Shown here one piece after another: positions 1-12,544 of a stretch of DNA of 26,327 nucleotides. The stretch covers positions 1-26,327 of the IMG/VR virus record IMGVR_UViG_3300035670_001110, one strand, 5' to 3'. The notes under the pieces are model-generated. The model was not told the DNA's origin and did no database searches. It saw only the letters and a list, made by a program, of their open reading frames with translations. This DNA is from a virus. Taxonomy: Duplodnaviria > Caudoviricetes. Both the position numbers and the translations under genes were made by a program. Position 1 is the first letter of the stretch; each line of letters opens with the position of its first letter.

Positions 1-647
1 CAATAGCGGAGGTAGGTGTCGAGCTTCAGCTCGCGCCGGGCGAAGTGATCGAGGGGGTTGAGCGCCATGTTGGCCATGATCTGGCTGGTGCTCGCGCCAA
101 TGGGGATGCCGCAGTCGCCACCGTTCACCGTGATGTAGCGCCACAGCAGAGCAAGCGTTGGCTTGCATTTGATGTGACGGCACATCTCGGCATAGAGCGC
201 TTCGTGGTTGATGCTGTAAAAGAACTTGCTGATGTCGAGGCTGAGGTAATACTTAAACCGCCTGTTCTTCAGATAGGCATGAAACTGCTGGCTGCAGCGA
301 TGGGTGCCGCGGCCAATCAGGCAGCTGTAGGTGTGGGCGATCAGTCGCTGCTGCAGGGGCACGCGCAGCACGTTGCAGACGGCGTGCTGCACGATGCGAT
401 CTTCAAGGAACGGCGCCTGGATCAGCCGGGGCTTCGGGTCCTTGATCCAGAACTCATAGTGCGGCCGCGGCTTATACCTGCCGTCCAGCAGCTTGGCTTC
501 CAGATGGGAGAGGTTGACCGCCAGGTTGCTCTCGTACTGGAGGATCAACCGCTTGTCGCCCTTGCCGCTTCTGACTTCCTTCCAGGCGTCAAGCAGCGCG
601 TCGTAGCTGGCGATCTGGGGCCACAGATTGCTGAGCTTGTGGGGCAT
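1..647 (-). CDS. DGR reverse transcriptase, N-terminal 215 aa (continues past the left edge; not in the ORF track)
   Basis: Manual translation from ATG at 647 is open to position 1: MPHKLSNLWPQIASYDALLDAWKEVRSGKG...KPRLIQAPFLEDRIVQHAV...TYSCLIGRGTH...YYLSLDISKFFYSINH...GIPIGASTSQIMANMALNPLDHF...DTYLRY. These are the RT1-RT4 motifs. The sequence ends at 'RY' plus a partial TG codon, the expected start of the YxDD motif. Confidence 0.96.
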   Translation of the reverse strand, partial: MPHKLSNLWPQIASYDALLDAWKEVRSGKGDKRLILQYESNLAVNLSHLEAKLLDGRYKPRPHYEFWIKDPKPRLIQAPFLEDRIVQHAVCNVLRVPLQQRLIAHTYSCLIGRGTHRCSQQFHAYLKNRRFKYYLSLDISKFFYSINHEALYAEMCRHIKCKPTLALLWRYITVNGGDCGIPIGASTSQIMANMALNPLDHFARRELKLDTYLRY

Positions 648-782: not shown

Positions 783-906
783 GAAGTCGGACGGCACGCG
801 CCCCATTGTTGTTGTTCGCGTTGCTGGATGTGTTGTTGAGATTCACGTTGAACACACCGGCATTGGCCGTGTTGTCCCAGTTGCCCCCAACATTCGGCAG
901 CATGTC
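783..906 (-). ncRNA. DGR template repeat (TR)
   Basis: AAC/AAT-rich (13 AAY codons, 34 adenines on the minus strand) copy of the target 3' end, lying between avd and RT. Confidence 0.96.
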
Positions 907-1339
907 AGGAGTCCGCCCTGAGTTCAGAGCGTAGCCAGCCCCCTAGAAGTTTGCCCACTTCGTCGAGCTTCTCGCAGGCAACACGGTGTCGCCTGGGCTC
1001 GATGAACTTGGCTTCCACTGCCAGGTTGAGTAGCTGGCGGAGGAACTCGTGCTGCACATTGAAGCGCGTGAGATCGGTCTTCTTGTGCTGCTTCTTGTTG
1101 GCGGCAATGGCCAACTCCAGACAGAGATACCCGATCTCACGCATCTTGGCACTGAGGACGTACTTCTCATACCGCGGCATGTTCCTGGTGAGAACATCCA
1201 GGTAGAGGCAGAGGTCCTTGCAGCGCCGCTCGATGAGCCAATAACGCTCCCGCCGGCGGTCGAGGCCCAAGGCCTGTTCTTCCGGCGGTGTGGCGTCAGA
1301 GGGAAGGCCCGCTGCCGCGGGCCCCACATGGCTGCTCAC
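905..1339 (-). CDS. avd: DGR accessory variability determinant (Avd-like four-helix bundle)
   Basis: 144 aa with MPRYEKYVLSAKMR and C-terminal EVGKLLGGWL motifs typical of bAvd; lies between target and TR. The start is uncertain (GTG at 1339 overlapping the target stop, or GTG at 1327). Confidence 0.9.
   Translation of the reverse strand: MSSHVGPAAAGLPSDATPPEEQALGLDRRRERYWLIERRCKDLCLYLDVLTRNMPRYEKYVLSAKMREIGYLCLELAIAANKKQHKKTDLTRFNVQHEFLRQLLNLAVEAKFIEPRRHRVACEKLDEVGKLLGGWLRSELRADS
1306..1323 (-). promoter_or_regulatory. DGR target-recognition hairpin/cruciform downstream of VR
   Basis: Minus strand GGCCCGC-GGCA-GCGGGCC: perfect 7-bp GC-only stem with a 4-nt GRNA loop, 12 nt after the target stop codon, as described for BPP-1-type DGRs. 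Confidence 0.85.
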
Positions 1340-2874
1340 GCAGCCAGAAGGCGGACGGCACGCGCCCCAAAGTGGGTGCTCGCGACGCTGGACGTGTAGG
1401 CGAGAATCACGTTGAACACACCGGCAGTGGCCGGGTCGACCCAGGTGCCCCCAACAGCCGGCAGCAGGTCGTTGGGACTGGAGCGATACACACCGTCACC
1501 ACCAAAGATGTTGGTGCTGGTCTGCGTGCCGCTGGTGCCCAGCTCCCTGGGAATCAGGGTCTCCGTCATCGCCCGCTTGGTGGCGTTGCTGAAGCTGCTG
1601 GAGGGGTGGAAGGTGCCACCGCTGTGGGGCACCAGATAGCTCCAGCCAGCGCTGCCGAACCAGATGCCGTCATCAGCCGCCGCAACACTCTCAGCGACCA
1701 GGGACAGCACACCAGAAGCGCCTGTGATCGAGGCATTGCCGGTGGTGTTGGTCCAGGCTGCAGAGCTCGGAAACAGGCGGAAGCCCCCGTTGCCGCCGCC
1801 GCTGTTGGTCAGGCCAGGGGCCAGTTCCCACTGGTTGCCCTGAATGTCCACGATCCCGCTGAGCTGGCCGTTGTGGGTGGTGTGCTCAGTGGCTGCAGCA
1901 CCGCTGATGCGAGCAGCGCCGGTGAAGGCGCGGTTGCTGCGACCGGCATAGCCCGAGCCGTTGTGGCCGGTCAGATCGGTGCGGGCGAACTGCAGGCTGG
2001 ACTTGTTCACGTCCGAGCCGTAGTTGTTGTTGCCCTTGGGCGCATAGGGCGCCACGTCCATCCAGGCCGCCTTGGTGGTGGCACCGGCGATGGGTGCGCC
2101 GCCAGCATCGAGCAGGGCCTGGGCATGGGCCAGCGACAGGAAGGCGATCTGGCTGCGGATCCACAGGGGGATGGGCGCAAAGTCCAGGCCGCGGGTCTTC
2201 ACCAGGGCCCACACGCCGCCGAAGTTGTTGGCGGGGGTGCCAGCAGCGCTGTTCAGCGCGGTGCTGTTCACCAGGCTGAAGGGGCTGTTGTAGTCGGTGC
2301 CGCCGTCGTCCTTGGTGGTGGGGCTGCAGGGCCAGTGCAGAGGCCGCGACACGGCGATGCCGCCGGTGAGCGGGGTGCCTCCGGGGCCGTTGGTGTGGTT
2401 CGGAGAGCCAGAGCCATCGGGCTTGCCGTTGGAGATCTGGTACTTGTCCACGAACACGCCGATCAGGCTCTGGCCTGCGTCCGTGAACGCCTTGGGCAGG
2501 ACAGCGTTGCCACTCTGCGTGTCACTGATCACCACCTTCGTGCCATAGAACGGCGCGTTGGTGTTGCCGGGGGCCTGCACGTCGATGTAGTGCGCCGGGA
2601 TGAAGCACACAATCGAAGCGCTCGGGATGTGGATGTAGTTCCCGAAGTGAGGGTGCTCGCGCAGCGGGTCGTAGGTGCCGGCGCTCAGCGGCGCAAAGTC
2701 GGCAGGCAGCAGCTCAATGGGGCAGCAACCGATGCCGAAGCCGCTCATGCCGGCCAGGCCCACGGTGTAGCGCCACTGATCGCGGTAGCCGTACCACTCG
2801 TTCTCGATGTTGAAGATCCCGGAGGGACCAACAATGCGCTCCTTGACGCGGAGCAATGGTGTGATGACAGTCAT
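1336..2874 (-). CDS. DGR target protein, Mtd-like (C-type lectin/FGE-type fold), putative receptor-binding protein
   Basis: 512 aa with motifs FVDKYQIS, HNGQLSGIVDIQGNQWEL and GGxW...AGVF...GARAV; carries the VR at its C-terminus; lies downstream of the tail fibre gene. Confidence 0.9.
   Translation of the reverse strand: MTVITPLLRVKERIVGPSGIFNIENEWYGYRDQWRYTVGLAGMSGFGIGCCPIELLPADFAPLSAGTYDPLREHPHFGNYIHIPSASIVCFIPAHYIDVQAPGNTNAPFYGTKVVISDTQSGNAVLPKAFTDAGQSLIGVFVDKYQISNGKPDGSGSPNHTNGPGGTPLTGGIAVSRPLHWPCSPTTKDDGGTDYNSPFSLVNSTALNSAAGTPANNFGGVWALVKTRGLDFAPIPLWIRSQIAFLSLAHAQALLDAGGAPIAGATTKAAWMDVAPYAPKGNNNYGSDVNKSSLQFARTDLTGHNGSGYAGRSNRAFTGAARISGAAATEHTTHNGQLSGIVDIQGNQWELAPGLTNSGGGNGGFRLFPSSAAWTNTTGNASITGASGVLSLVAESVAAADDGIWFGSAGWSYLVPHSGGTFHPSSSFSNATKRAMTETLIPRELGTSGTQTSTNIFGGDGVYRSSPNDLLPAVGGTWVDPATAGVFNVILAYTSSVASTHFGARAVRLLAA
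1347..1470 (-). repeat. DGR variable repeat (VR) with G/C-rich 3' end (IMH-like)
   Basis: Ungapped match to 783-906 (offset 564). Encodes DLLPAVGGTWVDPATAGVFNVILAYTSSVASTHFGARAVRL, versus TR frame DMLPNVGGNWDNTANAGVFNVNLNNTSSNANNNNGARAVRL. Confidence 0.96.
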
Positions 2875-2877
2875 GGC

Positions 2878-3153
2878 TCAGGCCTCGTTGAAAGGAGCGG
2901 GGTAGAAGGTGACGGGATTGGGTAGCTGCGTCTTGGTGATTGCTGTCACCGGCTGGCCACCAGCCCAGGCGTCGATGTCATCACCAACGCCATAGGCCCC
3001 GAAGTAATCGAAGCCGTCGTGAGTGTTGGCGTCAGGGTCAGCATCACGCTGCAGTGCCACCAAGGTGAAGGTGGGCTCGGCGGCGGGATCTTGCTCAGGC
3101 CATTGCACGTTGGTGCCGGGCTCGGGATCAGCCTTGTAGAAACGGAAGTCCAT
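2878..3153 (-). CDS. Hypothetical acidic protein (91 aa), possibly a tail-fibre/RBP accessory or chaperone
   Basis: ATG start, 3-nt gaps to both neighbours, co-directional. Function is inferred from position only. Confidence 0.7.
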   Translation of the reverse strand: MDFRFYKADPEPGTNVQWPEQDPAAEPTFTLVALQRDADPDANTHDGFDYFGAYGVGDDIDAWAGGQPVTAITKTQLPNPVTFYPAPFNEA

Positions 3154-3156
3154 GGC

Positions 3157-3324
3157 TCACATGTGAGAAGCGGAAGTGGGGTCGATCACAGAACGACCGC
3201 CATAGCTGCGATCACCAGGGCGACCGATTGGCAGTGTGTCTTGATCAAATTGCTGCAGTTTCTGCAGGCTGGGTTCGGCAACCGGCGCTGTGGCCGGAAA
3301 CCCTGTGGACGGAAGTACGGCCAT
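3157..3324 (-). CDS. Small hypothetical protein (55 aa; not in the ORF track)
   Basis: MAVLPSTGFPATAPVAEPSLQKLQQFDQDTLPIGRPGDRSYGGRSVIDPTSASHM. ATG overlaps the upstream stop (TGATG) and the stop is followed by GCC-ATG of the next gene, so it exactly fills the gap. Confidence 0.7.
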   Translation of the reverse strand: MAVLPSTGFPATAPVAEPSLQKLQQFDQDTLPIGRPGDRSYGGRSVIDPTSASHM

Positions 3325-3341
3325 CAGCAGAAGCTCCCTGA
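3320..3341. repeat. 22-bp direct repeat, copy 1 (core of a ~145-bp diverged duplication; other copy 3784-3805)
   Basis: GCCATCAGCAGAAGCTCCCTGA is identical at 3320-3341 and 3784-3805. It encodes SGSFC-stop plus the overlapping ATG of the next gene. Confidence 0.9.
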
Positions 3342-3590
3342 CGGAAGGTGAATAGGGTTGTAGGCATCAGCACTGACGTAGTGAAACGCCGTGCCAGGAG
3401 GCACCACCGGGCCAACGCCGAATGGCACTTGCCCAGGGGTGCCAACTGAGAACGAGCCGTTGCGATAGATCGCAGTCAGCTCATCCAGCAACACCGAGCC
3501 AGTTGTTCCCTCCGGCCCGACGGGACCGATGGGACCAGGAATTGCTGGGCTAAGCGTTCCCGAGAACGGGTTAAAGGCGTAGTTGGACAT
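3324..3590 (-). CDS. Small tail-associated protein (88 aa) with short collagen-like Gly-X-Y run and C-terminal module shared with the tail fibre
   Basis: N-terminal FNPFSG, then GPI-GPV-GPE-GTT-GSV; the last 42 aa are 27/42 identical to the tail fibre C-terminus. Confidence 0.8.
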   Translation of the reverse strand: MSNYAFNPFSGTLSPAIPGPIGPVGPEGTTGSVLLDELTAIYRNGSFSVGTPGQVPFGVGPVVPPGTAFHYVSADAYNPIHLPSGSFC

Positions 3591-3593
3591 GGC

Positions 3594-3788
3594 TCAGCTC
3601 TTGGTGATGCTGGTGACGTTGCCGCTGCCGTCATAGGCAAGGGTCAGCGTGGTAACGGTTGTCCCAGATGCGCCACCTTGCTTGTAGGTGACCGTCGAAA
3701 GATTTGTTCCCGAGTACGTCATCGCAACGTAGTCATGTTCGGGAATTGCGAAGCCTGGAATTGCGTCGCCATAAGGTTGAGTTGCCAT
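3594..3788 (-). CDS. Small beta-rich phage tail-region protein (64 aa)
   Basis: IPEHDYVAMTYSG...YKQGGASGTTVTTLTLAYDGSGNVTSITKS resembles small hypothetical proteins I recall next to tail fibre genes; TGATG coupling to the fibre gene. Confidence 0.75.
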   Translation of the reverse strand: MATQPYGDAIPGFAIPEHDYVAMTYSGTNLSTVTYKQGGASGTTVTTLTLAYDGSGNVTSITKS

Positions 3789-3805
3789 CAGCAGAAGCTC
3801 CCTGA
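3784..3805. repeat. 22-bp direct repeat, copy 2
   Basis: Identical to 3320-3341. Confidence 0.9.
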
Positions 3806-4543
3806 AGCGTGGTGAATGGGGTAGTAATCGCTCTGACTGATGCCAGAGAACGCAGCCCCAGGCGTCAGCACAGGGCCAACACCGAAGGGAATGGCGCCGG
3901 GCCGGCCAACACTGAAGGCAGCGTTGATCAGAATTTCCAGTGGCTCGAGCACCTGAATGGGGCTCTGTGGCACGGCTGCTGCCGTGGCGATCTGCACAGC
4001 AGCGTTGGCTGCCGCTGATGCGGCATTGGCCGTGCCGGTGACAGCGTTGGCTGCTGCGATTGCCGCGTTCGATGCTGTGGTCGCCGTGACGGCTTCCGCC
4101 TGGGCCGCCGTGGCTGAAGCCTGCGCAGCGGTTGCCGAAGCCTGGGCCGCCGTGGCGCTGGCTCCAAGCTGTGTGATGGCCGCGTCGTTACGGTCCTGCT
4201 GCTCTTGGACGACGTACAGGTTTTGCAGGTCGGCGGTGTCGAGATCGTCGGCGATCAGGTTGCTGCCGTCCTGCCAATCGACCAGGCGTGTGGCATTCGG
4301 CGTCTGGCGGATGACGGTCAGTACTTGCCCAGCTACAGGCGCAGTTGCGGCCTGAATCTGCGAGGAGCTGGTCCAGCTAAAGCCAACGCCATCCGCCAGT
4401 TCAGTGCTGAAAGTGCCGTCAAGGATGTTGAACCCCAGATAGACCTTGACGTGAGCCTTCAGCAGGTACGGGAACGGGACAGAAAAGGTCGTGGTCGACC
4501 CGTTGCCCGCGTACTGGCGGTACGAGAATGGCGTCGCTGACAC
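3788..4543 (-). CDS. Short tail fibre / adaptor protein with T7 gp17-like N-terminal anchor
   Basis: YAGNGSTTTFSVPFPYL...RQTP...DWQDGSNLIADDLDTADLQNLYVVQE is the typical gp17 N-domain, followed by (ASATAAQ)x3 heptads; only 251 aa; GTG start. Confidence 0.9.
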   Translation of the reverse strand: MSATPFSYRQYAGNGSTTTFSVPFPYLLKAHVKVYLGFNILDGTFSTELADGVGFSWTSSSQIQAATAPVAGQVLTVIRQTPNATRLVDWQDGSNLIADDLDTADLQNLYVVQEQQDRNDAAITQLGASATAAQASATAAQASATAAQAEAVTATTASNAAIAAANAVTGTANAASAAANAAVQIATAAAVPQSPIQVLEPLEILINAAFSVGRPGAIPFGVGPVLTPGAAFSGISQSDYYPIHHASGSFC

Positions 4544-7951: not shown

Positions 7952-10900
7952 TCAGCAGCCCTCCATGGCAGCGCGTTGTTTGACCGCCTCAATGCGGGCG
8001 TTCAGATCAGCGACCCGAGCTTCAGCTAGCTGAGTGCTCTCCGCTAGGGCGCGGGCCGGCTGGCCGTTCAGCAGCTCTTTGGTGGCCGCTCGTGACAGCC
8101 CTTTGGGCAGGCCGGTGCGTGGGTCTGGGTCGCCAATCGCATCGGCCAGCTCGTCGACCAGAGAGCCCTGGCTGACTGCGGGCATCTGCATCGCGGAGCC
8201 GCCCTTGCCGGGAATTTGCTCGTTCCAGGCCGACTGGGTTCTCCAGCGCCCGCTGATGGGGTCCATCATTTCGAACCCGCTGCCAGCGGCAATGCCGCCA
8301 GTCGCGTCTTCAAAGCCGATGACGTCGGCTAGAGCTCCTTGCCTTGCTCGCTCAAAAATGGCTCGCGTCGAATCAAACGTGCCTTTTGAAGCAAGGTTAT
8401 AAAGCTTCTCGAAAACATCAAGAATCCGGTCGAAAGCCGAGATGACATAGCTGACGTTCTTTTGCGTTTTGCTTGTGTCGAACTCGTAGGCGCCGAGCAT
8501 TGCCCGAATTGGATCTTGCCCGTTTCGCTTGGCCCCTGCATAGCGCATGAACGCGACGGCCTGAGATTCAGCGTATGCGATTGGCGTCTTGCCCATGTGG
8601 TTTGAGCCAATGCCGACCTTGATGCGGGCCCAGCTGCTGTTCAGAACAGCGACCTCCTTAGGGCCAAGCGACAGGTACTGGATCCTGTGAAACGCCTCGT
8701 GGTACGCCGTCCGGGCAAGGGCTTCGTCGTCCTCCCGCAGCACGGCGTTGATCTGGATGAGGTCGTCCCTCATGCGGTAGAAGCCGCCGATGAGACTGGT
8801 CTTCTTGCCGTCGCCGCCCCATTCCGCGCTGGTGGTTTTGCGGGTCCAGTCGTCCTGGAAGCGGATTGCCACCTCGTCGCCGGCTACTTCTCGAATGATT
8901 TGCGTGAGCTCCTGCTGCCGCCGGGCTCGCATCTCTGGGTTGCTTTCAAAGGGCGTGTTGTCGAACTCATCCCAGCCGGCGGGGACAAACCGGCGGGCCG
9001 GAGATTGCAGCTCTTCCGCGCCGGCAAAGCGCTGCTCCGGCACCTGCAGGCTCATCGCCCTCTGCGGTGCAGCGGCTGAGCCGGTCTGCTCCGTGACGAC
9101 GCCCTTGATCGCATCACGGACCTTGGCGCCGTGCGTGCGGATTGCGGTGAGGTTGTAGCCGGCCTCCTCCAGCGCCTGGATTAGGCGTGATTCGCCCTTC
9201 GACTTCTTGGCCTCGTCGCGCAGCATGTAAGCGGCGCGGTCTAGGTCGGAGGCGAACTCCACCTTCGCCATGCCGTAGCGCGGCGCTGACTTCGAGAGAT
9301 CTGCCGGGAAGGTGAACGGCTCAGGCGGTGCCAGGTCTTGGCCGGTGAGCTCTTGCAGCTGCTTGCGCTGCTTGGCGGCGAGGTCACGCAGCTGCTGCGC
9401 AAACTCGGCATCGCGGGCCTCGGCGGCCGGCAGGCGGGACTGCTCGATCTGGCGGATGCTGCGTTCGAGCCGGTCGATCTCCTCGGCGCGGCGCTTGGCG
9501 GCGGCGGTTCCTGGCGGCGGTTCCTGGAAGTCGCTCACCACACCCGCGGCCTTCTTCTCATCGAAGGTCTTGAGGTCGTAGCCCTCAGCGTCACGCGCGG
9601 CCTTCTCCGCCTCTTGGGCGACGGCGTCATCCAGCTGGCGGTAGGCATCGCGGAGCTCCAGCTCGTCCGCCATGGCCTGCACCACGTCGTCGGTGATGGT
9701 GTTCTCGGCCAGATCGCGCTGGACCTTCATCAGGTCGACACCCGAATCCATCGGCAGATCGGGGATCGGCGTTTCAGGCGGCCGCACCTCGCCGTTCTGG
9801 ATGGCGCGCTGAATGGCCAGCATCTCCATCGCCTGGCGGTCATCGGGCAGCAGCTCGTCGAGCTTCTGCGGCGCCTGGGCCAGCAGGTCTTCCTGGACCA
9901 CGTCGGCCCGGGTGATGGCCTGCTCGCCCATCAGATCAGCGAGCTGACCCACCAAGCGGTTCTTGATCTGCTTGGCGATCGCGCCCTTGTTCTCGCCGGC
10001 TGCGACGCGGTTGCCGCCCTCGTTGAGCAGATCGCGGATCGGGCCGGTCTCCATCCAGGTGCGCTGGAAGTAGTCGATGGCGCGGGCGTTGGCCTCGGCC
10101 ACCTGCTGCGCGCTGGCCTTGTCGATCCGGCTGCCCTTGGCCTCCAGCGCCGCCGAGTTGGCGTCCGCCATGGAGAACAGCCGCTTCTCCCGCTTCAGCA
10201 GGGTGGCCACCTCGTCGGCGAGGTCGGCGACCGCCACCATCTGCTTGTTGAAGGTCTGATCCCAATCGGTGCCGGCCAGCAGATCGGTCTGCTCGCCCGT
10301 CGCCTGGGCCTCGCCGGTCATCTGCTTGCTCAGCTCGAGCATCCCCTTCAGGCGACCCTCGGTGGTGCCGGGGTTCTCGACCAGATAGCGGTAGGCGCCG
10401 CGCATCGAGGCTTCATCAGCCCCGCTGCCGCCAATCAGCCGGCCCTGGCGCTCCTTGATCTGGCCGCTCTCGACCGCGCGCAGGATGTCCTCCGGCAGAC
10501 GGCTGAGCTGGAAGCCGGACAGGCCGTTGCCGGAATCGGGCGCCAGCGGCACTTGAAGCGCTTTCAGTTGCGCCGTATCGGTGATGCCGGCGCCTTTGAA
10601 AAACCAGGCTGCATCGATTGGCCGGCCGCCGCCGGTGGCGATGTTGCTCAGGGCCCCAACTGTTTTCGCCTGCTCGGGCGACTCAGCAAAGATCTCCTTG
10701 ATCGGCAGGGTCGGGATGTTCTTCGCCTGGGCCAGGGCAAAGCGGTTGTGGCCGTTCACCACATAGAACTCGCCGTCGGCCGGGTCTTGCCACACCTCGA
10801 CCGGCTGCTCCATGTCGGTGTTCCAGCGGTCGACGCCCTCGAGGGAGGAGCCGCGCTGCACGCCGCGAGCGTCAGTGCCTTGCTTGAACTGGAAGCGAGC

Positions 10901-12544
10901 CGGGTCGATCTTGAGATCGCCCGTCTTCATCATTTGCTGGCCGGGCACCAGGCGACTGGGGATGACGATCGAGCCGTCGTCAGCGGCTGCCTGCAGCGTT
11001 TGCACCGCATCGGCCGGGGTGAGCTCCTCCCATTCCTTGCCGGTCAGCGCTTGAGCCCTTGCTGCCAGGTCAGGGTTCACCTCGGGGTGGAGGACGCTGA
11101 CCAGCTGCTGGGGGTCGCGCTTGCCCAGCTGTTGCCATTGCTGCACAAACGGGGTGATCGGATCAGCGAGGCTGTCGCTCGGTGCCGTGTTCAGCTCAGT
11201 GCTCAGCGCAGGGTCCGGCTCAAGCGGCTGGCGAGTGGCCATGCGCTGATCCAACTCCTGGAGCACGGGCCCGCCACTGCGCACGGTGTCGAGTAGCTCA
11301 GCGTCAGAGGCGTTCTTGATCTGACTGAGGGCGACGTCAGCCTCCGGCAGCTCGGGGTCGTAGTCGATCGCCCATGGATCGAGCCCTGGGTCAGCCGTTG
11401 GCAGCTCCCCTTCCATGACAGCGCCGCCTGGCTCCATCGCCTGGCTGGGAATGGCCGGCTCTGGCGCCGCAGCAGGCTCCGGCGTGCTGATGCCGTACTT
11501 CTCCTCCAGGGCGGCATTGGCCTCGCGCAGGCTTTGGCCCTGCACGGCCTCCGGGGTGAACGCTGTGGCGCCGGTATCGGGGTCGCTCTGGACCAGGCCA
11601 GCCCCCTCGAGCTCCGCCCGGGGCTGCTCAACGGTCTGCTGCACCACGCTGCGGGCTTTCCGCGCCCGGTTGATGCCCATGAAGGCGCCGCCCAAGCCAA
11701 CGCCGAACGCGACGTTGGGGATGAATGAGGCTGCGGCCGCATCGGGAAAAGCCATCCCGGGCTTAACCGGGTCGAGCTTGGTGCCAAGCACCGCATCGAC
11801 CAGGCCAACGGCGCTGCCGCCGGTAGCGGTGTAATCCAACGGCGCGGTGACGGCCTCGCCGACCGCAGCGTCGAATGCCAGGCGCGATGCTGCGCCCTGC
11901 CAGGACTTTGCCAGGGCTGGGTTCATGGCATTGGCCAGCGTCTGCGCAGCGGGGCCAGCGAAGCGGACGCCACTCAGCGCCTTCAAGCCAACGCCAACAC
12001 CAACGCCGCCGGCAACGCCAAGAGTCAGCGCGCTGCGCAGGTCATCGACGCCCTTCTCCTCGGGCGTCATCTGCGATGGAGGCGTTACCCCTGCCGAGCG
12101 GTAGACGTGATCGACAACCCGGTCGACGGCGCGGCCGGTAGGGCTGGTGCTGTAGTCGGTCTGCTTTCGGCCGCCGGCCCGCTGCTTCCATTCGATGCCA
12201 GCGCGAACGGCATTGGCGGTCGCCGCCGTGGCGCCAAGGCTGCCCTGCCTGAAGGCGATGCCAGCCGGCGTGCTGCGCATGGTCGTGCTCGCCGCCCGCT
12301 CAACGCTGCGCAGCGGGTCTGTCGCCAGCTGGTTGAGCTCGTAGCGGAGGTCGTTGCCGAGCTTGCTCAGTGAGAAGCCGCCGGGCCCGACGCCCCAGAA
12401 GTTGTTGGCCTTGGGCTTGGGTTTCGGCTTGGGCTTGGCGCGAGGGGCCGGGGGACGCTCGGGGACAACAGGCTGGCCAAAGCCCAGCGAGCCCTTGGCA
12501 ACAACTTTCCCGGTGCGGGGATCGGTGACGTACTCGATAGGCAT
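7952..12544 (-). CDS. Large internal virion protein (1530 aa) with ParB-like domain and HExxH metallopeptidase-like domain
   Basis: Lies within the ejection protein cluster; motifs VWQDPADGEFYVVNGHNRF (ParB/Srx fold) and TAYHEAFHRIQ...YAESQA (zincin). Confidence 0.75.
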   Translation of the reverse strand: MPIEYVTDPRTGKVVAKGSLGFGQPVVPERPPAPRAKPKPKPKPKANNFWGVGPGGFSLSKLGNDLRYELNQLATDPLRSVERAASTTMRSTPAGIAFRQGSLGATAATANAVRAGIEWKQRAGGRKQTDYSTSPTGRAVDRVVDHVYRSAGVTPPSQMTPEEKGVDDLRSALTLGVAGGVGVGVGLKALSGVRFAGPAAQTLANAMNPALAKSWQGAASRLAFDAAVGEAVTAPLDYTATGGSAVGLVDAVLGTKLDPVKPGMAFPDAAAASFIPNVAFGVGLGGAFMGINRARKARSVVQQTVEQPRAELEGAGLVQSDPDTGATAFTPEAVQGQSLREANAALEEKYGISTPEPAAAPEPAIPSQAMEPGGAVMEGELPTADPGLDPWAIDYDPELPEADVALSQIKNASDAELLDTVRSGGPVLQELDQRMATRQPLEPDPALSTELNTAPSDSLADPITPFVQQWQQLGKRDPQQLVSVLHPEVNPDLAARAQALTGKEWEELTPADAVQTLQAAADDGSIVIPSRLVPGQQMMKTGDLKIDPARFQFKQGTDARGVQRGSSLEGVDRWNTDMEQPVEVWQDPADGEFYVVNGHNRFALAQAKNIPTLPIKEIFAESPEQAKTVGALSNIATGGGRPIDAAWFFKGAGITDTAQLKALQVPLAPDSGNGLSGFQLSRLPEDILRAVESGQIKERQGRLIGGSGADEASMRGAYRYLVENPGTTEGRLKGMLELSKQMTGEAQATGEQTDLLAGTDWDQTFNKQMVAVADLADEVATLLKREKRLFSMADANSAALEAKGSRIDKASAQQVAEANARAIDYFQRTWMETGPIRDLLNEGGNRVAAGENKGAIAKQIKNRLVGQLADLMGEQAITRADVVQEDLLAQAPQKLDELLPDDRQAMEMLAIQRAIQNGEVRPPETPIPDLPMDSGVDLMKVQRDLAENTITDDVVQAMADELELRDAYRQLDDAVAQEAEKAARDAEGYDLKTFDEKKAAGVVSDFQEPPPGTAAAKRRAEEIDRLERSIRQIEQSRLPAAEARDAEFAQQLRDLAAKQRKQLQELTGQDLAPPEPFTFPADLSKSAPRYGMAKVEFASDLDRAAYMLRDEAKKSKGESRLIQALEEAGYNLTAIRTHGAKVRDAIKGVVTEQTGSAAAPQRAMSLQVPEQRFAGAEELQSPARRFVPAGWDEFDNTPFESNPEMRARRQQELTQIIREVAGDEVAIRFQDDWTRKTTSAEWGGDGKKTSLIGGFYRMRDDLIQINAVLREDDEALARTAYHEAFHRIQYLSLGPKEVAVLNSSWARIKVGIGSNHMGKTPIAYAESQAVAFMRYAGAKRNGQDPIRAMLGAYEFDTSKTQKNVSYVISAFDRILDVFEKLYNLASKGTFDSTRAIFERARQGALADVIGFEDATGGIAAGSGFEMMDPISGRWRTQSAWNEQIPGKGGSAMQMPAVSQGSLVDELADAIGDPDPRTGLPKGLSRAATKELLNGQPARALAESTQLAEARVADLNARIEAVKQRAAMEGC

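Follow-up and report, generated by a model that had tools for sequence, protein, structure and literature searches.

How is a receptor-binding protein held on a phage particle when it is encoded apart from the tail fibre and is the target of a diversity-generating retroelement (DGR)? To our knowledge, the mounting of separately encoded DGR targets is largely unresolved, and it matters because avidity decides whether a given target variant works. The question is raised by virus record IMGVR_UViG_3300035670_001110, whose entire 26.3-kb length (26,327 nucleotides) forms the window analysed here. T7-like structural genes lie on its minus strand, with PHROG profile matches that include the head-tail connector, capsid, and tail tube. 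The internal-protein genes are followed by genes for a 251-aa short tail fibre, for proteins of 64, 88, 55, and 91 aa, and for a 512-aa DGR target, and then by avd, the template repeat (TR), and the reverse transcriptase (RT). The fibre, the 88-aa protein, and the 55-aa protein share a C-terminal module. We propose, with a probability of roughly 0.6 and on the basis of sequence comparison, that this module is a conserved headless copy of the target's own neck that would act as a clip, mounting the separately encoded head on the tail either directly or via the 91-aa protein.

The fibre is composed of a T7 gp17-type anchor (residues 1–153), an Ala-rich and likely coiled-coil stretch, and the headless module at its C terminus; it has no receptor-binding domain of its own. 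Its last 42 residues match those of the 88-aa protein at 27 of 42 positions without a gap (83/126 nt), with a local alignment score of 146 compared with a shuffle mean of 28 and with none of 5000 shuffles reaching it, so the common C terminus described in the initial annotation stands. That annotation also reported a weak echo in the 55-aa open reading frame (ORF). The echo is indeed weak by itself (4 and 12 of 5000 shuffles; profile probability 5, E = 0.007), but the N terminus of the 55-aa protein is homologous to proteins of 76–109 aa in the same gene slot of relatives (probability 92, E = 8e-7), and these hold the full module (E = 5e-17). By this homology the 55-aa protein is an eroded third module copy, orthologous to the 76–109-aa proteins. 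The 88-aa protein had been taken for a collagen-like branch; the Gly-X-Y triplets are present, but there are just 5 of them (5–9 in five homologues checked), which makes the branch marginal. The 64-aa and 91-aa genes of the same gene run were omitted from that annotation. The module is strictly terminal, with 120 of 121 profile matches finishing at most 3 aa from the stop codon. Readthrough that would fuse the module to the next gene was considered and rejected, the stop being TGA in most relatives and TAA in others and mostly overlapping the next start. Comparison of the module with PDB sequences gave chance-level matches, none of them credible.

Single copies of the module are only weakly similar to the target N terminus (1 of 5000 shuffles for the 88-aa copy and 24 of 5000 for the fibre copy). 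The similarity rises with the diversity of the profiles compared, from an hhalign probability of 29 (E = 5.9e-4) to 74 (E = 2.9e-5) and then to 92 (E = 6.7e-7), and the strongest of these alignments runs end to end on target residues 35–89, in agreement with the relationship first suggested for this DNA. When a subset of stalk-borne modules was compared with the deepest target alignment, the first half only was aligned (probability 68). A profile made from distant targets only scored a median of 10.7 bits over 32 modules, above the shuffle 99th percentile of 6.0, with just 7 of the 32 beating the best shuffle. The headless copies terminate at the position of target residues 88–90, within the first long strand of the head (E87–93), and are without about 10 residues of the neck's middle loop.

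An AlphaFold2 model of the target from 150 diverse sequences has a predicted local distance difference test (pLDDT) score of 95 and a predicted template modelling (pTM) score of 0.94, with residues 31–90 at pLDDT 93–98 and residues 1–30 at 67–77. The neck is thus predicted to fold as part of a compact lectin head. The pLDDT values below 50 for residues 1–89 in a fold from 56 close sequences do not point to a neck that folds only as an oligomer, since they were an effect of alignment depth that was gone with the 150 diverse sequences. In Foldseek, the best solved match of the model is TaqVP (5vf4, E = 2.3e-14); Mtd and FGE proteins are matched as well, and the predicted C-type-lectin (CLec) fold contains the variable repeat (VR). 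Many viral structural matches carry a tail fibre annotation, and the target is likely a receptor-binding protein. Its sequence found no match among PDB sequences, and protein-atlas searches gave nothing usable.

The identity of the module as a neck comes from the wider family of the target, which comprises 495 clusters at 50% identity. Among the best 150 of these clusters, 134 representatives are at least 400 aa long; the module precedes the head in 133 of the 134, and 96 have more than 60 aa before the module in the same chain. In the wider family, therefore, the module is the neck between a stalk and a TaqVP-like C-type-lectin head, all three within a single chain, and the place where one head type is grafted on many stalks. 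The window's clade encodes the head in a gene of its own, with a 34-aa N terminus peculiar to the clade. Fused members, such as phrog_20912 of Campylobacter CP220-like phages, share neck and head with this target but differ in that their neck lies inside one chain and in that the headless module gene and the 91-aa gene are absent in 36 of 36 distant loci. The cultured Campylobacter phages CP220, CPt10, and CP21 and their relatives encode a distant member of the head family, annotated as hypothetical (residues 42–149, about 35%; structural match E = 5e-21). At six distant loci (L063, L071, L072, L087, L088, and L090), targets with short N termini follow genes with a different conserved C-terminal motif (WSI/LNII/LSII), which suggests another docking pair for the same head.

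The headless module keeps company with one clade of heads. A gene ending in the module lies at most 2.2 kb upstream of the target in 40 of 43 close-clade loci and in none of the 36 distant loci, 31 of which have at least 1.5 kb of sequence upstream; the 34-aa target N terminus is likewise found in 43 of 43 clade loci and in no distant locus. One of the exceptions, L001, is a contig that wraps round and has its modules at the other end. A search with the module only, for which a narrower alignment was used because the wide one was too diverse, found 32 viral loci on 31 contigs, of which 28 also have the target and the other three are fragments of 4.3–8.4 kb. Among metagenomes, 13 of 17 loci have the target and the other four end at most 400 nt from the module, so that the co-occurrence with targets in other phages on which the initial annotation would have been checked is present. 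The carriers range from 63 to 916 aa, have unrelated N termini, and occur in records of about 42 kb up to 127 kb. At nine loci, the sole adjacent copy is an ORF of 63–99 aa made of a peptide and the module, with no stalk and no 91-aa gene, and such an ORF is the only headless copy in one 100% complete record of 110 kb. The N-terminal peptides of two stalkless carriers recur at the N termini of larger tail-region proteins in L043 and in phage S-SRP02. Pairing of module and target is kept in all five searched records without an Avd match, three of them at least 90% complete. The arrangement thus belongs to the receptor-binding protein and not to the DGR, and the earlier tie to DGR targets as such has to be given up.

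The module copies are under purifying selection. The pairwise ratio of nonsynonymous to synonymous change (dN/dS) has a median of 0.105 among 16 fibre copies (96 pairs), of 0.087 among 16 sequences of the 88-aa slot (107 pairs; three of these sequences belong to other stalks), and of 0.116 among 14 sequences of the 55-aa C terminus (79 pairs); pairs with no synonymous change or with a proportion of synonymous differences of at least 0.7 were excluded, and no kept pair exceeds 1. A tree of 70 modules separates the 21 target necks from all 49 headless copies, which group as a single clade (100/100), and the 14 gp17-fibre copies cluster together (87/88) and not with the second copy of their own genome. 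This topology fits a single old duplication, after which the module was copied from carrier to carrier, and does not fit products of repeated target-gene decay.

The 91-aa protein is a candidate co-adaptor. It matched no known family in Pfam, PHROG, and protein-atlas searches, and its gene was found in none of five whole-searched records, one of them complete, in which a stalkless carrier is the only adjacent copy. A Fisher test of its presence against module type was set aside since the loci are not independent. Its reading as a displaced piece of the target neck found no significant hhalign support (E = 0.62). Two of its short motifs resemble target residues 67–76 and 88–96, parts that are missing from the headless module; tests of these motifs, which were chosen post hoc, gave 3, 3, 6, and 41 of 300 shuffles, a weak lead only.

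The following scheme could account for these observations. An ancestral stalk-neck-head fibre would have split into a stalk and a free head; the free head would have kept its own neck and gained the 34-aa N terminus, and the neck copy left on the stalk would have taken over attachment of the head. Later duplication may then have equipped the gp17 fibre tip, the 88-aa arm, and the 55-aa peptide adaptor with clips, with the gp17 anchor fixing one clip to the tail and the 88- and 55-aa proteins adding clips via their N-terminal peptides. Several mounting points could provide avidity for a variable head of low affinity. The rationale is taken from Mtd, for which PMC2408619 describes a gain from micromolar to picomolar affinity on the phage and a requirement for avidity. 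More tentatively, the module might be a portable C-terminal clip that can sit on any stalk or docking peptide and, completed by the 91-aa protein, captures the hypervariable lectin head. If so, phages across several genome sizes would adjust, by duplicating the clip, how many heads they bear and where, a self-derived attachment principle that we have not found in print.

Several points weigh against the module as a clip for the head. In the predicted single-chain model, the target's neck already packs against the target's own head, and TaqVP, the target's closest solved relative, is monomeric (PMC6328139); together these do not imply a neck-neck interface. The loop residues missing from the headless copies covary in the family with a glycine-rich motif. 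Among the exceptional clade loci, the module gene of L035/L111 is about 10 kb from the target, and L055, a fragment of 8.7 kb, shows no module gene. The co-occurrence sets overlap, some of their phages are nearly identical, and loci with a target supplied the module profile, so the counts are not independent. The module tree has 54 columns and long branches, and the 55-aa copies are not in it.

The alternative that survives best, although we consider it unlikely, is a self-associating, foldon-like cap that trimerises and terminates coiled-coil or collagen-like stalks, with the target mounted otherwise, for example by its own N terminus or by the 91-aa protein. In the fibre the module does come after Ala-rich sequence, and in the 88-aa slot after Gly-X-Y triplets, and 120 of 121 matches end at most 3 aa from the stop codon. 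However, stalkless carriers of 55–99 aa have little to trimerise, and a free cap would be expected on target-less fibres, whereas every module contig long enough to tell had a target. Both the stalkless carriers and the tight tie to a single clade of heads speak against a cap that does no more than trimerise.

It is improbable that the small module proteins and the 91-aa protein are instead helpers of head assembly or folding, akin to tail-fibre chaperones and not kept in virions. Small conserved genes immediately upstream of the target, with overlapping stop and start codons, and a 91-aa protein that matches no family would suit such a role, but stalkless carriers begin with peptides common to larger tail-region proteins, and the same module ends the gp17-anchored fibre, a virion protein by established T7 biology. 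T7 gp17 is a virion trimer. The fibre-borne copy thus argues against a pure chaperone role.

We regard it as very doubtful, too, that the module plays no part in holding the target and either links the accessory proteins in a chain or is itself a small, invariant adhesin. The region is made of serial small proteins, the copies sort into position-specific subtypes in the tree, and the 88-aa slot consists of two genes in 5 viral loci, the second starting with Mtd_N. On the other hand, S-SRP02 (p003/p004) has a 64-aa gene and an FNPF start with no module or target in the nine tail-region genes tested, which makes this a separate generic junction and not part of the clip system; conversely, the module-bearing fibres of L026 and L028 lack the 64-aa and FNPF genes. 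The target is the module's only constant companion.

Contradicted by the data, and barely credible, is the alternative entertained in the initial annotation, in which parts of the target gene were duplicated repeatedly and left the copies as relics without function: the homology to the target and the eroded 55-aa copy would agree with it, but the neutral decay among relatives that it predicts was looked for and is absent (median dN/dS about 0.1 in all three copies), the stop position is fixed whether written TGA or TAA, and the headless copies are one clade separate from all targets.

We therefore return to the headless neck copy as a clip and to its setting in the window (Table 1). The DGR is canonical: Avd and RT profiles match genes that adjoin the target, the RT gene being cut by the contig end, and TR adenines account for 21 of 21 TR/VR mismatches over 124 nt. 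This adenine pattern, the RT and Avd neighbours, and the predicted CLec fold with the VR are all as found in a DGR with a C-type-lectin target. Among cultured phages, the capsid is closest to that of Synechococcus phage S-SRP02 (63.7%), which comes from a freshwater lake, and a target relative at 89% was found on a contig binned as uncultured Synechococcus; a freshwater picocyanobacterial host is therefore likely. Contigs from a public run, possibly the window's own source, match the window DNA without any difference. Related-strain contigs from an RNA run span the 88- and 55-aa genes and cannot show transcription.

Table 1. Positions of the DGR, target, and tail-region features in the window
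Feature	Positions	Strand	Remarks
DGR reverse transcriptase	1..647	-	truncated at contig end; PF00078, phrog_1423
Template repeat (TR)	783..906	-	
Avd	905..1339	-	PF22296, E = 4e-23
DGR target, 512 aa	1336..2874	-	predicted TaqVP-like FGE-type C-type-lectin head
Variable repeat (VR), 3' end of target	1347..1470	-	TR/VR mismatches
Target's own neck module, residues 35–90	2605..2772	-	homologue of headless copies
Clade-specific target N terminus, residues 1–34	2773..2874	-	lower model confidence; candidate docking element
91-aa conserved protein, candidate co-adaptor	2878..3153	-	found in each of the 31 clade loci where a stalk-borne or o55/o76-slot module is adjacent
55-aa protein	3157..3324	-	conserved N-terminal peptide and internally deleted module (residues 30–55)
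88-aa protein	3324..3590	-	N-terminal FNPF peptide, 5 Gly-X-Y triplets, short likely helical segment, headless module
Headless module copy 2 (88-aa protein)	3327..3461	-	stops at stop codon
64-aa conserved protein	3594..3788	-	phrog_26903; generic tail-region gene
Short tail fibre, 251 aa	3788..4543	-	PF03906, E = 1.9e-28; PHROG tail fibre
Headless module copy 1 (fibre type)	3791..3925	-	stops at stop codon

Further observations concern individual genes and loci. A 64-aa gene followed by a gene with an FNPF start, as at 3594–3788 and 3324–3590 of the window, recurs in many tail regions with or without a target and is a candidate generic adaptor pair. The two-gene form of the 88-aa slot (L006, 1016–1659; also L008, L009, L010, L024, and L123) encodes first an FNPF-collagen protein of 83 aa with a DxGG-type motif at its end, and then a 131-aa protein made up of an Mtd_N start (PF18454, E = 4e-14), collagen, and the module; it looks like a second, inserted junction that lengthens the arm. 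In L024, an intact target and three module genes adjoin a deleted DGR, in which avd and RT fragments are fused in a 111-aa ORF (3629–3964). L011 (4388–7578) and L054 (6004–9191) have two tandem target-family genes, each with a diverged N terminus, behind two module genes; the L011 record is 99% complete and without an Avd match. In L125 (5591–5704), a stop splits the target frame between the N-terminal piece and the neck, by mutation or assembly error. Elsewhere in the window (7952–12544), residues 540–656 of a 1530-aa ORF in the internal-protein region match phrog_21 (E = 1e-22), which is annotated as portal; the match is probably an embedded domain.

The feature is real, conserved, and apparently undescribed, a variant of anchor-mediated display whose mechanism we infer. 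In the full-text literature outside subscription papers and supplements, neither the module nor a DGR of such cyanophages was found described; large surveys of DGRs, PMC8144416 for example, may list them. For a large family of phage lectin heads that lacks annotation, the locus supplies candidates for a clip and a co-adaptor, both small and open to testing. It also suggests a route from fused to split fibres via duplication of a junction domain, and it puts an intact-looking DGR in T7-like phages whose likely hosts are freshwater Synechococcus. Display applications would benefit from a short tag able to capture a binding domain that can be diversified.

Among known systems, Mtd of Bordetella phage BPP-1 shares with the window a podophage DGR (target, avd, TR, and RT) and, as PMC2408619 describes it, a C-type-lectin target at the tail-fibre ends that depends on avidity. 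The window's target differs in that its structural resemblance to Mtd is weak (E = 0.006 or worse) and in that Pfam gave no match anywhere in it, the N-terminal Mtd_N β-prism included, Mtd_N being found instead on the module-bearing 131-aa protein of relatives. To judge by its sequence, the target is not an Mtd-type trimer. TaqVP, the DGR target of a Thermus aquaticus prophage (5vf4), shares the FGE-type CLec fold, C-terminal VR, and gene order (TM score about 0.6 by target length), but is only 15% identical to the target, and the available part of PMC6328139 describes no attachment mode for it.

The closest likeness is to the anchor/adapter systems of K1-5, SP6, G7C, and KP32/KP34. According to PMC6872550, these share with the window a T7-type anchor without its own receptor-binding domain and a separately encoded receptor-binding protein with a conserved N-terminal peptide, and peptide-only truncated variants occur among them too. 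The window's fibre has the gp17-type N-terminal anchor (PF03906), and the conserved 34-aa target N terminus is, by its sequence conservation, a candidate counterpart of the N-terminal docking peptide. No T4gp10-like branching domain was found in the fibre, which has no Pfam match beyond the anchor, whose PHROG matches, among those listed, end by residue 192, and in which only about 45 aa follow the Ala-rich stretch. The analogy to K1-5 and KP32 drawn at the outset therefore holds for function and not for membership: by analogy, the window's system likely works like those of K1-5, G7C, and KP32 but is not one of them, given that no T4gp10-like domain was found and that the candidate docking element is derived from the cargo. 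Those systems carry a depolymerase and dock it on a T4gp10-like domain that bears no relation to this cargo (PMC6872550). The window's cargo is the lectin head of a DGR, and its candidate docking site, 45 aa long and occurring one to three times, is copied from the neck of that same cargo.

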